Part shown: positions 31,295 to 40,536 of the stretch, piece by piece
Position numbering within the stretch: position 1 is the stretch's first letter
How the letters are laid out: each line of letters starts with the position of its first letter
Virus record (IMG/VR): IMGVR_UViG_3300027608_000014
Coordinates: 32,001-96,000 of that record
Strand: one strand, 5' to 3'
DNA length: 64,000 nucleotides
DNA from: a virus
Notes under the pieces: generated by a model
What the model was told of the DNA's origin: nothing
What the model saw: only the letters and a program-made list of their open reading frames with translations
The model's database searches: none
Translations under genes and position numbers: made by a program

Positions 31295-31314
31295 GTAGTT
31301 TCCCCTCACAATCT

Positions 31315-31341
31315 ACCCGACCAGAAATGGTCGGGTTTTTT
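31315..31341 (+). terminator. Intrinsic terminator ending the structural module
   Basis: ACCCGACC-agaaat-GGTCGGGT then TTTTT. Confidence 0.85.
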
Positions 31342-31401
31342 GTTGTCGTGATGCAAAGAAGGTCCTTGCGTCGAATCGATTTCTTCGTATTCTTATGCCA
31401 C

Positions 31402-31866
31402 ATGAGAAAACCACTAACCGAAGAACAGAAAGCCAAAAATCGCATATATCGAATGGCCTACTATGAGAAAAATAAAGACCTTGAATTGGCCAGGGCAAAA
31501 GAGTACCAATCAAAAAATCGTGAGAAGCTCAATGATTACTACCGAGAGTATCATGCCAAGGATCGAGAGAAGAACAATGAGTATCATAGGCAATATCGAA
31601 AGGACAATCCTGATAAGATTGCCAGGATTGAGTTTGAGTCCAAAGCTAGAAATCCTCTGAAAGAATGGGCCAAGGATCAGTGCCAGAAGGCCGTTCGTCA
31701 GGGGCTCTTAAGTAGGCCAGATAAGTGCGATAGGTGTCCCACTGCATGCGTACCAGATGGACATCATGAAGATTACAGCAGGCCGTTGGATGTAGTGTGG
31801 CTGTGTCACACTTGTCACGCAGTTGCCGATCGATCTAGGAGGGCTAAGGAGAAAGCCACAAGGTAA
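31402..31866 (+). CDS. HNH-like endonuclease with basic helical N-terminus
   Basis: Likely ATG at 31402. RP..C..C...GHHEDYSRPLDVVWLC..CH motif. Confidence 0.75.
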   Translation: MRKPLTEEQKAKNRIYRMAYYEKNKDLELARAKEYQSKNREKLNDYYREYHAKDREKNNEYHRQYRKDNPDKIARIEFESKARNPLKEWAKDQCQKAVRQGLLSRPDKCDRCPTACVPDGHHEDYSRPLDVVWLCHTCHAVADRSRRAKEKATR

Positions 31867-31966
31867 AGATACAAGAGGTCGGAAATGATAGAATATGGGA
31901 CATAATACTTTGTATAGCATATATCTATCAGATACATGTTATACAAAAGGCCTTAGGGCCCAACAC

Positions 31967-32032
31967 ATGTCGCAAGACAAAAGTCTTCATCGAGCTGAAC
32001 GTCGAATCAGCGAGTACCTTCTTCGCGGCTAA
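31967..32032 (+). CDS. Possible 21-aa peptide MSQDKSLHRAERRISEYLLRG
   Basis: ATG after an AC-rich leader (CAACAC); too short to verify. Confidence 0.25.
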   Translation: MSQDKSLHRAERRISEYLLRG

Positions 32033-32132
32033 GCGATGATTTCTTTTCTCACCAACATACATCCGTAAGAAGCGGAAGTGTTGGCGTCGTTCCACTCACC
32101 TTTTTTTGTCGTTAGTGCGACGTTAAACATCC

Positions 32133-32216
32133 CGGTGCTTGGGCACTGTTAGCTGGGTTCAATTCCTAGCGAGGTCACTAAGCCCAAGGCGTTCAATCGA
32201 AAGATTGGGAATGATC
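32133..32216 (+). ncRNA. Pistol-like ribozyme 1 (variant with inserted T-loop hairpin)
   Basis: P1 CGGTG/CACTG. Loop CTTGGG pairs perfectly with CCCAAG (32183-88), preceded by CTAAG and followed by GCG. P3 TTCAATC/GATTGGG, junction AA, P2 GGTCA/TGATC. The AAA linker is replaced by a GCTGGG-TTCAATT-CCTAGC hairpin. Confidence 0.55.
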
Positions 32217-32249
32217 CAAACAAACACAGCCCCACAAGGGGAGGCGACG

Positions 32250-32495
32250 ATGGCCGACTCCATCGTTAGGTCAGAACGTGACCTATTCGAAGAAACCCTC
32301 ACTGCAGCCCTCAAGGGCCTGCGCCTCGGCAAGATGGCAAAGGTTCAGGTAATCGAGCTCCCCGAGGAGTTTGCCCTCGTAATTGACCGGAAGCACCTGC
32401 TCCGGTATCGGGGGGTGGGCCCAAAGGCCGTCGCGGAGTTTGTGGAAAACCTGAGCGAGAGATTGGATGGGTGCAAGGTGTTCTTCTCCACCTGA
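32250..32495 (+). CDS. Hypothetical protein (alternative in-frame start at 32211)
   Basis: ATG 32250 has a GGGGAGG Shine-Dalgarno. GC-rich codon usage. Confidence 0.55.
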   Translation: MADSIVRSERDLFEETLTAALKGLRLGKMAKVQVIELPEEFALVIDRKHLLRYRGVGPKAVAEFVENLSERLDGCKVFFST

Positions 32496-32520
32496 CACCA
32501 ACTGAAGGTTCGATCCCTTC

Positions 32521-32586
32521 CGTCGTTCGTGCGACGTTAAACAGCATACTAGGCACGAAGCGTCCACTCACTCGAGTGGGGATATG
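32521..32586 (+). ncRNA. Pistol self-cleaving ribozyme 2
   Basis: CGTCG-TTCGTG-CGACG (P1), TTAAACAG, P2 CATA, CTAGG, pseudoknot CACGAA, GCG, P3 TCCACTC/GAGTGGG, junction GA, P2' TATG. Matches the pistol layout element for element except GA in place of GU at the cut site. Confidence 0.8.
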
Positions 32587-33630
32587 ATCAAAATTATCAC
32601 AGAGACGCAGGCCCTCTTAATGGTCTGCACTCCCGAAGACCGGATTAAAGGTCTTGTCGTAGTTCACAGCGGCGTGTTCCACGCCGACGATGTGTTCTTC
32701 GTCGCCTTCCTCACGCTGGTCAGTCCCAGCATTCAGATCGTCCGGACTCGCAAGAGCGAGATCATTGAGGCGGCGGAGATCGTGGGCGATGTTGGTGGCA
32801 TCTGCGCCATCAATCAAAACCGCTACGACCACCACCAGAAGGGTGGGGCCGGTGCGCGCCTGAACGGAGTGCCCTTTGCGAGCTTCGGCTTGATCTGGTC
32901 GCACACAGGCTGGACGCTGGACCTGATCGGCACCGTGCTCAGGGGCGGCGGTCAGTACAGCGCCATCGCTCGGATAGTCGACGAGTCGCTGGTCCAGGCG
33001 ATCGACGCGTCGGACTGCGGCTTCACGTCGGCCGCCAGCGACCCTTTCGCGGATGCCACTCCGCGCTACTCGCTGAGTATGGCCATCAGCGCGTTCAATC
33101 CGGACTGGTCGGAGGACGACCAGGACTTCGACGCCGCCTTCGCCAGGGCCGTCGAATTCGCACAGATGATTCTCCGTCGAGAGATCATCAGCGCGGCGGG
33201 GCAGGTCGAAGCGACGTTGGTGGTCAAGCAGGCAATCACCGAGCAGACGGACGAGCCGGAGATCTTGATCCTCAATCGGTTCTGCCCTTGGCAGAATACG
33301 GTCCTGCGATGCGCCGACGTGGTGAAGTTCGTTGTCTTCCCTTCGGAGACTGGCGACTGGCGCGTGCAGGCAGTGCCCGTCTACTCTGGCTCGTACGAGA
33401 CCAGGATGTCCCTTCCGGCAACCTGGGCAGGCCTCCGCACGGCGAAACTCGCAGCGGCGGTTCGCGCCAGTGGCGGATCGATCGGGGACGACGAGGCGGC
33501 GTTCTGCCACGACAAGCTCTTCATCGGTGGGGCGACCACCTTTGAAGGAGCCATGCAGATGGCTCGCGCCGCCCTGCCAAAGGTTGCTGAGGTCAGCATC
33601 GATCTCACGGATCTCCGTGAGCGGGCCTAG
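32584..33630 (+). CDS. MYG1 family (DHH-like) 3'-5' RNA exonuclease
   Basis: HSGVFHADD, IVRTR, DVGG, YDHHQ, ASFGLIW, IDASD, FNP, R..LP..WAGL, FCH..FIG motifs. Confidence 0.9.
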   Translation: MIKIITETQALLMVCTPEDRIKGLVVVHSGVFHADDVFFVAFLTLVSPSIQIVRTRKSEIIEAAEIVGDVGGICAINQNRYDHHQKGGAGARLNGVPFASFGLIWSHTGWTLDLIGTVLRGGGQYSAIARIVDESLVQAIDASDCGFTSAASDPFADATPRYSLSMAISAFNPDWSEDDQDFDAAFARAVEFAQMILRREIISAAGQVEATLVVKQAITEQTDEPEILILNRFCPWQNTVLRCADVVKFVVFPSETGDWRVQAVPVYSGSYETRMSLPATWAGLRTAKLAAAVRASGGSIGDDEAAFCHDKLFIGGATTFEGAMQMARAALPKVAEVSIDLTDLRERA

Positions 33631-33687
33631 CAAGCCCGTGCAGTTATCTCCCGCCCCGAAAGGGGCGGGACACTTTCCGGGTTATCC

Positions 33688-34311
33688 ATGAACCCAGTAA
33701 TAAAATGGAAGTTGCCGAAAGGCATAGAAAGGCACACCATGACGTGTACCTCGTATATCCGGGTTAAGGGCCCCGTGAAAGCCCTCAAAGTCTGCAACTG
33801 GTGCGGCCCAGATGCAGAAGACCCGCAGCCGCAGCAGTTGTTCCTCGTGGCGGGGGAACAGGATTCGTTTGGGACAGAATGGCACGAGGTGTGCCAGGCC
33901 TGCATCGACGCTGGCAACGTCGCCTCCGAGACGGCGCTCGAGGTCCGAATCGCCAAGATGGTGGAGAAGCTCGGCAGTGAGCAGTCCGATACGGACTTCT
34001 ACGTCGCGGCGCTGGGCAGCCGCGACACGGTGGACGAGTGCGCCATCGTTCGGGGAGCGACGAACGCAGCCCATATGTTTGTCCGCTGGGAGGACATCGC
34101 CGCCAACAAGGGCGACTACCTCTACTCAGAGGCGCTCCGCATCGCCACTGACGACGACCGGAGCACCGTCGTCAGGTTCCGGAAGGACCGGGACGAGGAG
34201 GAGCGGCGGTACTGGGCCAAGCAGGATGAGCTGGAGGAGCTGGGGGAGCTGGAGGATCGAGATGCTCAGGATGAGCAGGATGAGCAGGATGAGGAAAGGG
34301 AGGAAGCATGA
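33688..34311 (+). CDS. Hypothetical protein (CxxC motifs, acidic tail)
   Basis: GC-rich ORF with QDE repeats. Confidence 0.6.
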   Translation: MNPVIKWKLPKGIERHTMTCTSYIRVKGPVKALKVCNWCGPDAEDPQPQQLFLVAGEQDSFGTEWHEVCQACIDAGNVASETALEVRIAKMVEKLGSEQSDTDFYVAALGSRDTVDECAIVRGATNAAHMFVRWEDIAANKGDYLYSEALRIATDDDRSTVVRFRKDRDEEERRYWAKQDELEELGELEDRDAQDEQDEQDEEREEA

Positions 34312-35313: not shown

Positions 35314-35362
35314 GAGGCTCTCCAACAAATATCCAGTGGGCCGGTGCGCCCACTGCACTTTC

Positions 35363-35424
35363 CGTGTAGAGCGCAGCCCTTTTAAGGCTGAGGTTGCTGG
35401 TTCAAATCCAGTCCTACGCGACTA
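35363..35424 (+). tRNA. D-armless tRNA-Lys(UUU)-like RNA
   Basis: Acceptor CGTGTAG/CTACGCG, 4-nt linker AGCG with no D arm, anticodon arm CAGCC-CTTTTAA-GGCTG, T arm GCTGG-TTCAAAT-CCAGT. Ends ACTA rather than ACCA. Confidence 0.65.
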
Positions 35425-38137: not shown

Positions 38138-38358
38138 AGTCGAATAGCATAAAAGGATTCATTTAGCCGATCCCAACTCTAACATGATATGCGGGTTCAA
38201 TTCCCGCCCTCGGTGCTCAGCTCATCTGATCGTTTACTTAGTAACGATTCCTTTAAAATGGAAACAGGTGGGCTGAGCACCGAGGTAGCACAATGGTAGT
38301 GCGCGTGCCATGAAACTGAGGTTGGTTAATTTAGGGTCCGACAAAAGCCAGTTCGACT
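38138..38358 (+). ncRNA. Large YrlA-like (Y RNA) permuted tRNA mimic
   Basis: Terminal stem AGTCGAA/TTCGACT. Internal order is T arm (GCGGG-TTCAATT-CCCGC), closed 21-bp acceptor helix, TA, D arm (GCAC-AATGGTA-GTGC), which is the YrlA topology. Confidence 0.7.
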
Positions 38359-39400: not shown

Positions 39401-39478
39401 CACGTAACAGCTCAACCTGGTAGAGCACCTGTATGCAGAACAGGACGTTGCTGGTTCAAATCCAGTCCTACGTGACCA
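39401..39478 (+). tRNA. Atypical tRNA with GCA anticodon (Cys-like)
   Basis: D arm GCTC/GAGC, anticodon arm CCTGT-ATGCAGA-ACAGG, T arm and encoded CCA. Non-canonical: C8, A32, A73 discriminator, A7-C mismatch, extra base between T and acceptor stems. Confidence 0.65.
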
Positions 39479-40117: not shown

Positions 40118-40536
40118 GGGCCATAAAGGATTCGACTAATAGGTCAGATCTACAGCCACATGCAGAGGGACGACTTAGTTACCTCTTTAAACTCCTGAGA
40201 CAAAACTCAAACGCTAACGCGAATGACTCCGGCAACGGAAATGTGATCCAGGGCTACTTCGGTAGCTCTTCGGTCCGCACTCCGATGCTCGCTGCGGCCT
40301 AGTCCGCATCCGTCCTCTCTTCGACACCTGCTAAGGGAGAAGGACGACACCAGCAGGACGATGGTGGTGGATCCACTTTGGTACTGATCATACAGCAATG
40401 CTGCAGATCTGCGACTCGACCCACCTGGCAGCACATTTCCAGGGGACCTGTTAAGAGCGAATAATGAGATAAGCATGTAAACGCGGTAGAGTAAGACAGA
40501 TTAGGACCGGGCTCTCAGATGCCCGATGGTCCACCA
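40118..40536 (+). ncRNA. ssrA: tmRNA
   Basis: GGGCCAT/ATGGTCC acceptor with G3-U70, GGATTCGAC 5' motif and ACCA end. Tag ORF 40213-40302 reads ANANDSGNGNVIQGYFGSSSVRTPMLAAA. Confidence 0.9.

Follow-up and report, generated by a model that had tools for sequence, protein, structure and literature searches.

A pistol-like RNA with a tRNA-derived hairpin in its P1-P2 linker, upstream of a small phage gene

Canonical pistols and a divergent phage locus

The canonical pistol ribozyme (RF02679; env25 structure 5K7C) is reportedly due to Weinberg in 2015, the junction that holds its scissile bond is usually GU, and, to our knowledge, the A-minor contacts made by its AAA linker are present in every pistol crystal structure. 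The +1 nucleotide has a known contact with U29, and either A or G is seen at position 32 in known pistols. The linker, J1-2, is a single strand of ~7 nt whose highly conserved AAA docks in the minor groove of P1, where it makes A-minor triples with that helix and counts among the ~10 most conserved pistol positions (PMC6101554). The junction varies in identity but is strict in length (PMC4604425), G40 is the proposed general base (PMC6154101), and residue roles and env25 numbering are taken throughout from PMC6154101 and PMC6795133. Small ribozymes tolerate inserted helices at some positions, and many IMG/VR pistols carry long inserts in P3; the insert discussed here, unlike those P3 extensions, splits the highly conserved single-stranded linker and supplies what would be the working P1.

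The locus lies in a 64,000-nt stretch (the window) that forms part of an IMG/VR virus record of 148.9 kb, and Rfam at gathering thresholds finds in this window tRNA-Arg, two partial tRNA matches, tmRNA and one pistol (32521-32586). About 370-400 nt upstream of that canonical pistol, which carries the ATG of a MYG1-family gene in the 3' strand of its P2, a second pistol-like RNA occupies the 384-nt gap between an endonuclease gene (31327-31866) and a small ORF (Table 1). The endonuclease is of homing/HNH type (phrog_2340) and sits just 5' of a mosaic intergenic region; since other genes take its place in relatives, it may be a driver of local recombination. A blastn search of phage GenBank with 31300-33700 gave no match.

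With the canonical pistol (Harris 2015, PMC4604425) this RNA has in common a P1 with a 6-nt loop, a 6-bp pseudoknot between that loop and the P2-P3 strand, purine 32 and G33 within YUARG, the GCG of G40-G42, a P3 closed by a U.G pair, the 2-nt junction, P2 and a phage intergenic location, and its 3' half, from P2 through P2', is canonical in sequence and spacing against the env25 numbering. However, where the canonical pistol has a single strand of ~7 nt with AAA, the variant linker consists of 4 nt, a 17-nt T-arm hairpin and another 4 nt; an extra hairpin and an AAA stretch stand 5' of P1, the cut site reads AA, and the score falls below the Rfam gathering threshold. The original prediction, made from the letters alone, had placed a second pistol core at 32133-32216, with a CTTGGG/CCCAAG pseudoknot and a T-arm-like hairpin instead of the AAA linker, and it is borne out on each of these points: every listed feature stands at its predicted coordinates, the P1' loop is fully complementary to 32183-32188, and the hairpin lies within the P1-P2 linker.

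Table 1. Parts of the variant, with the neighbouring features used for comparison
Feature	Positions	Strand	Remarks
P0, upstream hairpin	32107-32122	+	5 bp; 6-nt loop 32112-32117 (UUAGUG)
A-rich spacer UUAAACAUCC	32123-32132	+	equals the canonical J1-2 linker including AAA (32125-32127), now 5' of the putative working P1
P1' hairpin	32133-32148	+	stem 32133-32137/32144-32148; 6-nt loop 32138-32143 (CUUGGG) is the pseudoknot 5' strand
Linker J1-2	32149-32173	+	UUAG, T-arm hairpin, CGAG (32170-32173); G32173 is also able to close P2
T-arm hairpin	32153-32169	+	stem 32153-32157/32165-32169; loop 32158-32164 (UUCAAUU); inside the P1-P2 linker
P2 5' strand	32173-32177	+	pairs with 32212-32216
CUAAG	32178-32182	+	equivalent of env25 nt 29-33; A32181 and G32182 correspond to A32 and G33
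Pseudoknot 3' strand CCCAAG	32183-32188	+	6/6 complementary to 32138-32143
GCG	32189-32191	+	G32189, C32190, G32191 correspond to G40-C41-G42; invariant, canonical spacing
P3 hairpin	32192-32209	+	7 bp, counting the U.G pair that closes it; loop GAAA
Junction	32210-32211	+	2 nt; predicted scissile bond A32210/A32211
P2 3' strand (P2')	32212-32216	+	covaries with the P2 5' strand
Downstream small ORF	32250-32495	+	81 aa, no family; Shine-Dalgarno GGGGAGG at 32238-32244
Canonical pistol, comparator	32521-32586	+	before the MYG1 gene; RF02679, 49.2 bits

The canonical pistol of the same phage resembles the variant in its P1 and linker (which match P0 and the spacer), in C at nt 29, in A at +1 and in an ATG at or in P2', and differs in having no insert, a different pseudoknot sequence and a T-arm-like hairpin that lies outside the ribozyme, 5' of P1. 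That hairpin (32504-32520, 5-bp stem, loop UUCGAUC) abuts the canonical P1 directly and is kept in relatives (the loop is UUCGACC in L131), so that both ribozymes of this phage have a T arm adjoining or inside them. Further along the window, two partial tRNA matches cover model positions 9/10-63 and are both missed by ARAGORN: 35355-35412 (29.6 bits) looks degenerate, and at 39409-39466 (37.2 bits) the acceptor stem is 7 bp long, the anticodon is GCA, and 2 additional bases part the T stem from the acceptor strand. A solitary T-arm hairpin stands at 38191-38207, and this part of the window gives the impression of housing tRNA genes that are decaying or unusual. The phage also encodes a tmRNA at 40118-40536 (Rfam 66.2 bits), for which ARAGORN reports nothing.

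A descriptor that calls for YUARG, N6 and GCGU, for P3 (>=6 bp), the 2-nt junction and P2 (4 bp), and for a preceding hairpin with a 6-nt loop exactly complementary to N6 matches the window only at 32178 (the variant) and 32549 (the Rfam pistol), and finds 0 matches in 200 dinucleotide shuffles, both strands included. The Rfam pistol model gives the variant 17.9 bits, aligning only P0 and its linker, against a gathering threshold of 34.5 bits. Two further candidate identities were rejected. A hammerhead with pistol-like topology (PMC11300833) finds no counterpart here: inspection of the sequence showed no hammerhead core motif, and an Rfam scan of 31950-32700 at E<=10 returned no hammerhead family. 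Coding sequence (a TTG ORF at 32139-32495) is ruled out by substitutions that compensate each other in the stems and by the different downstream genes of two distant relatives.

Conservation and covariation among relatives

Five homologue clusters of the small ORF (79-84% identity) led to contigs that, together with one contig from JGI, are the source of the closer relatives, and homologues of MYG1 at 63% and 54% identity led to two more distant ones, L180 and L190. In L126 (the JGI contig) and L140 the core is unchanged from the window. In L128-L136, L142 and L143 it differs at 6 of 88 positions, with the ORF DNA only 82.5% identical, and all 6 differences lie in stems and keep the pairing: a U-A to C-G change and G.U/G-C swaps in P1', a G.U to A-U change in the T hairpin, and G.U/G-C swaps in P2. 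L142 alone has one mismatch in P2.

In L180 (2412-2503) and L190 (1404-1524) the same architecture stands directly before MYG1, exactly where the window, L129 and L137 carry the 49-bit Rfam pistol, and this substitution of one for the other argues for functional equivalence. The order of parts is P1' with the same loop, UUAG, a hairpin, 4 nt, P2, YUARG, the same pseudoknot strand, GCG, P3, the 2-nt junction and a P2' containing the MYG1 ATG. The linker hairpin has the loop GUCAAUA in L180 and UUCGAUC in L190, where it makes a perfect T arm, the stems of the hairpins are altered, and P2 and P3 are wholly different in sequence from those of the window copy with their pairing intact. The Rfam pistol model scores L180 at 28.9 bits, misusing the linker hairpin as P1, and gives no match to L190 at E <= 1.

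Covariation was assessed on an alignment of 8 sequences (A2), with a fold made up of P1', the T hairpin, P2, P3 and the pseudoknot. Fully 98.2% of cells are paired and 10 of the 28 pairs show double changes, values that 0 of 500 column shuffles reach, and with slid partners pairing drops to 27-54%. The P1' pair 32136/32145 is U-A, C-G or G-C across the three lineages, and two further P1' pairs swap G.U and G-C; the T hairpin is kept in 8 of 8 sequences, with G.U/A-U/G-C and U-A/C-G exchanges and the loops UUCAAUU, UUCGAUC and GUCAAUA. Both sides have changed in L180 and L190 in three P2 pairs and four P3 pairs, P3 being constant in length. The equivalents of G33, G40, C41 and G42 are invariant across versions, and position 32 is always a purine, A or G. 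The six pseudoknot pairs are invariant in all eight sequences, so that covariation speaks neither for nor against the pseudoknot, whose support comes from conservation and from analogy. As far as comparison of sequences reaches, these data confirm a selected, tRNA-containing pistol variant: the architectural novelty that had been proposed now has behind it a nested fold with compensatory changes in three diverged lineages at two genomic positions, and homologues with the inserted hairpin, which the prediction had suggested looking for, do exist, with a hairpin that covaries and is constant across the 8 sequences.

The element is absent from L137-L139, which are close relatives and keep the canonical pistol before MYG1; at L137:1400-1590, and likewise in L138 and L139, unrelated sequence adds 28 codons to the small ORF, bringing it to 110 aa. 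A further contig, L144, lacks P1', and taken together these contigs indicate that the element is dispensable.

The variant is known from three lineages only, as judged by sequence-pattern scans of IMG/VR, JGI metagenomes and GTDB genomes. Model R1 found no additional copy on the 148.9-kb genome, and single-protein IMG/VR locus searches with the small ORF and with MYG1 gave no match. A pattern of P1 plus linker returned 79 IMG/VR loci, many of them canonical pistols and none with the insert or an upstream T loop; other patterns (a T loop with the core motif, the P2/core motif, the 5' part of L144) gave chance matches, tRNA genes or nothing. On GTDB genomes a widened variant pattern produced 9 chance matches and an exact 22-mer none; a narrower pattern scan (gap 5-7, where the window type needs 8), covering the L180 type only, gave no further member, and the DNA-pattern scan of JGI metagenomes yielded one true relative (L126) and one false match (L127). 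Neither model R1 nor Rfam detects a pistol or the variant at 22 IMG/VR MYG1-profile loci (<=45% identity), and L179, L191 and L192 have neither. The last two (MYG1 at 53% identity) share a conserved upstream stretch of ~35 nt (L191:830-899, L192:250-330). Separately, the IMG/VR contigs L065 (7400-7480) and L073 (8090-8130) carry repeated hairpins with the pistol P1 stem and linker sequence and no pistol core, which may be a different element reusing the P1-linker module.

Predicted cleavage, the start codon and competing explanations

Taking these observations together, we consider it probable (at roughly 0.6) that 32107-32216 is functional and belongs to a small group of architecturally variant pistol ribozymes not catalogued before. 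The copy in the window probably self-cleaves: with the equivalents of R32, G33 and G40-C41-G42 unchanged along with P2, P3 and the junction, the RNA should cut itself. We infer both catalysis and the cut site from this likeness; the attack of a 2'-OH between A32210 and A32211 would leave an upstream RNA ending in a 2',3'-cyclic phosphate and a 5'-OH RNA bearing the small ORF, and so would separate the message of that ORF from the upstream homing-endonuclease transcript, much as the canonical pistol would detach the MYG1 message.

Several features count against cleavage, namely the loss of AAA from the linker between P1' and P2, the A/A at -1/+1, the sub-threshold Rfam score, and nearest-neighbour MFE folds, which favour a nested long-range helix using the pseudoknot strands over P1' and P2 (such folds cannot model a pseudoknot). 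As to the junction, its length is 2 in all versions, reading AA here, GU in L180 and AU in L190. The window copy thus has A at both -1 and +1 in place of the usual G and U, and this A at -1 is not disqualifying, because junction identity varies in the literature and 4 of 11 canonical IMG/VR pistols have A there in a rough parse. Furthermore, nt 29 changes together with +1, the two being U/U in L180 and L190 and C/A in each ribozyme of the window; this agrees with the known +1/U29 contact and supports placing the scissile bond at 32210/32211.

In the reading that comes nearest to ours, the element is a conserved, pistol-derived structured RNA that no longer cleaves and is kept for another role, such as a 5'-UTR structure governing how the downstream gene is translated or how stable its message is, or a T-loop landing site for a tRNA-binding protein. 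We regard it as unlikely without being negligible. The AAA of J1-2 is indeed gone from its canonical place, A stands at -1, Rfam stays below threshold, the T arm at 32504-32520 next to the canonical pistol hints at a separate role for T arms, and the element is dispensable in L137-L139. However, the catalytic nucleotides and the exact spacing of the core are invariant while P2 and P3 have been wholly resubstituted, which is the pattern of a catalytic core and not of a generic structure, and the variant replaces the canonical pistol at the same site before MYG1.

The original prediction also held that the cut falls exactly at an AUG. Under the canonical register that placement stands, since ATG 32211 follows A32210 directly and shares its reading frame with the ORF that ends at 32495, but its significance is doubtful. 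In the relatives every gene caller begins the small ORF at the counterpart of ATG 32250, preceded at a distance of 5 nt by the Shine-Dalgarno GGGGAGG, and the 13-codon extension from ATG 32211 to 32250 shows no coding constraint; a start at 32250 is the likelier one. The first six bases from 32211 equal the start of the MYG1 gene, so ATG 32211 may descend from the MYG1 start codon, carried over when a ribozyme next to MYG1 was duplicated. Each of the four versions that adjoin MYG1 has the start codon within P2', 2 nt past the predicted cut. The Shine-Dalgarno is itself overlapped, within 32230-32244, by a small hairpin at 32230-32241 (CCCC, a 4-nt loop, GGGG), whose loop is ACAA here and GAAA in relatives.

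Could the pistol likeness be a recombination scar in what is really a tRNA-like element, a mascRNA-like cloverleaf at 32128-32176 or a decaying tRNA pseudogene that RNase P or RNase Z would target? The region adjoins the phage tRNA and tmRNA cluster, a real tRNA occupies the equivalent place in L144, and there is a weak mascRNA/tRNA-like match to 32128-32176 (24.7 bits, E 0.015 in a 751-nt search); the T-loop sequence is that of a tRNA, and the order of P1', 4 nt and T arm is that of anticodon arm, variable loop and T arm. Against this, the variant has only that T arm and an anticodon-arm-like stem: it lacks a D arm and a conserved acceptor stem, has a 6-nt loop for an anticodon loop, and is called by neither ARAGORN nor the Rfam tRNA model. 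The acceptor-like stem makes 5 of 7 pairs here and 3 of 7 in L180 and L190, and its 3' strand covaries with P2' instead, and so we judge a tRNA-like element improbable.

A ribozyme that cuts conditionally was the further suggestion of the original prediction, which saw a competing P1 upstream whose loop, by pairing 32112-32117 with 32176-32181, would block P2 and the catalytic loop. The hairpin is there, and its loop UUAGUG is complementary at 6 of 6 positions to CACUAA, overlapping P2 and the YUARG motif, but this pairing is private to the window: L126 and L140 reach 5 of 6 with a central mismatch, and neither L128-L143 and L190, where the P0 hairpin is kept with the GNRA tetraloop GGGA, nor L180, where a hairpin with a GCAA loop abuts P1', can form it at all. 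Moreover, 4 of the 6 target bases belong to a conserved motif, and the P0 loop is one base off the loop of the canonical pistol. In L126 and L140 the loop copies that of the neighbouring pistol, 34 nt of whose 5' half are duplicated without change in L126, and the pairing accordingly looks incidental. A switch is not supported and is, in our estimation, quite improbable; two other alternative helices are invariant in the alignment. Finally, a chance resemblance or a purely decayed duplicate without selected structure has only the low Rfam score in its favour and is scarcely credible in the face of the shuffle test, the covariation and a conservation above that of neighbouring coding sequence.

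Origin of the insert and its meaning

Returning to the proposed pistol variant, P0 and its linker match P1 and linker of the canonical pistol (32521-32543) at 21 of 23 bases, and in L126 and L140 34 consecutive nt, 5' flank included, are the same as in the 5' half of the canonical pistol, which points to duplication or gene conversion between the two ribozymes. P0 shows G-C/C-G and U-A/C-G/U.G exchanges in relatives, and the spacer does not differ between the window, L126 and L128-L143, is one base off (A for U) in L190 and is reduced in L180; on this comparison the motif therefore appears to have kept P0 and the AAA stretch, which are probably what is left of the original P1 and, after it, the old J1-2. 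The A-rich spacer may still have a role, and its displaced AAA might make A-minor contacts.

The source of the insert is suggested by L144, a contig of 931 nt whose first 62 nt are a 5'-truncated tRNA cut off by the contig end (36.8 bits, anticodon GUU, tRNA-Asn-like). This tRNA is identical to the variant over the 4-nt variable loop or spacer UUAG, the T arm and CGAGGUCA, an identity that covers the 3' acceptor strand and discriminator (the CGAG and P2 5' strand of the variant), and its anticodon stem is homologous to the stem of P1'. The shared T arm and 3' acceptor strand mark the insert as tRNA-derived; judged by this match, it is the 3' two-thirds of a tRNA-Asn-like gene whose 7-nt anticodon loop has been remodelled to the 6-nt pseudoknot loop. 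At L144:1-110 the tRNA runs straight into a pistol 3' half with no P1 partner, and the contig may be a natural tRNA/ribozyme recombinant or an assembly chimera formed at the shared stretch of ~30 nt; in either case such a tRNA exists in the phage population of L144. The insertion point is marked by L190, which matches the canonical pistol to the end of the A-rich linker and then again from the base before P2.

The order of events we infer is that part of a tRNA gene, from the anticodon arm over the 4-nt variable loop and the T arm into the 3' acceptor strand, entered a canonical pistol where the A-rich linker met P2. The former anticodon arm would have become the working P1 (P1', 32133-32148), with its 6-nt loop making the 6-bp pseudoknot with 32183-32188, the T arm would have persisted as the hairpin that now interrupts the P1-P2 linker, and the original P1 would survive as P0 with the old AAA linker.

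More tentatively, the locus could be read as the exaptation of a tRNA fragment into a ribozyme, the anticodon arm serving as P1 and the T-loop module replacing the AAA linker, with tRNA and ribozyme acting as interchangeable RNA-cutting punctuation marks in polycistronic RNA (compare L144 with L142 and L143) and with leaderless mRNAs made by ribozymes, whose messages would begin at, or 2 nt before, the AUG. A naturally selected pistol with its linker split by a T arm and its P1 taken from a tRNA anticodon arm would mean that the fold is more modular than its compact consensus suggests, would be a concrete case of a piece of tRNA recruited into a ribozyme, and would account for the failure of covariance-model searches to detect such copies. 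In four ribozyme versions the AUG lies at, or <=2 nt after, the predicted cut, and this placement makes the purpose of phage pistols testable, whether it be the separation of messages or the making of leaderless mRNAs.
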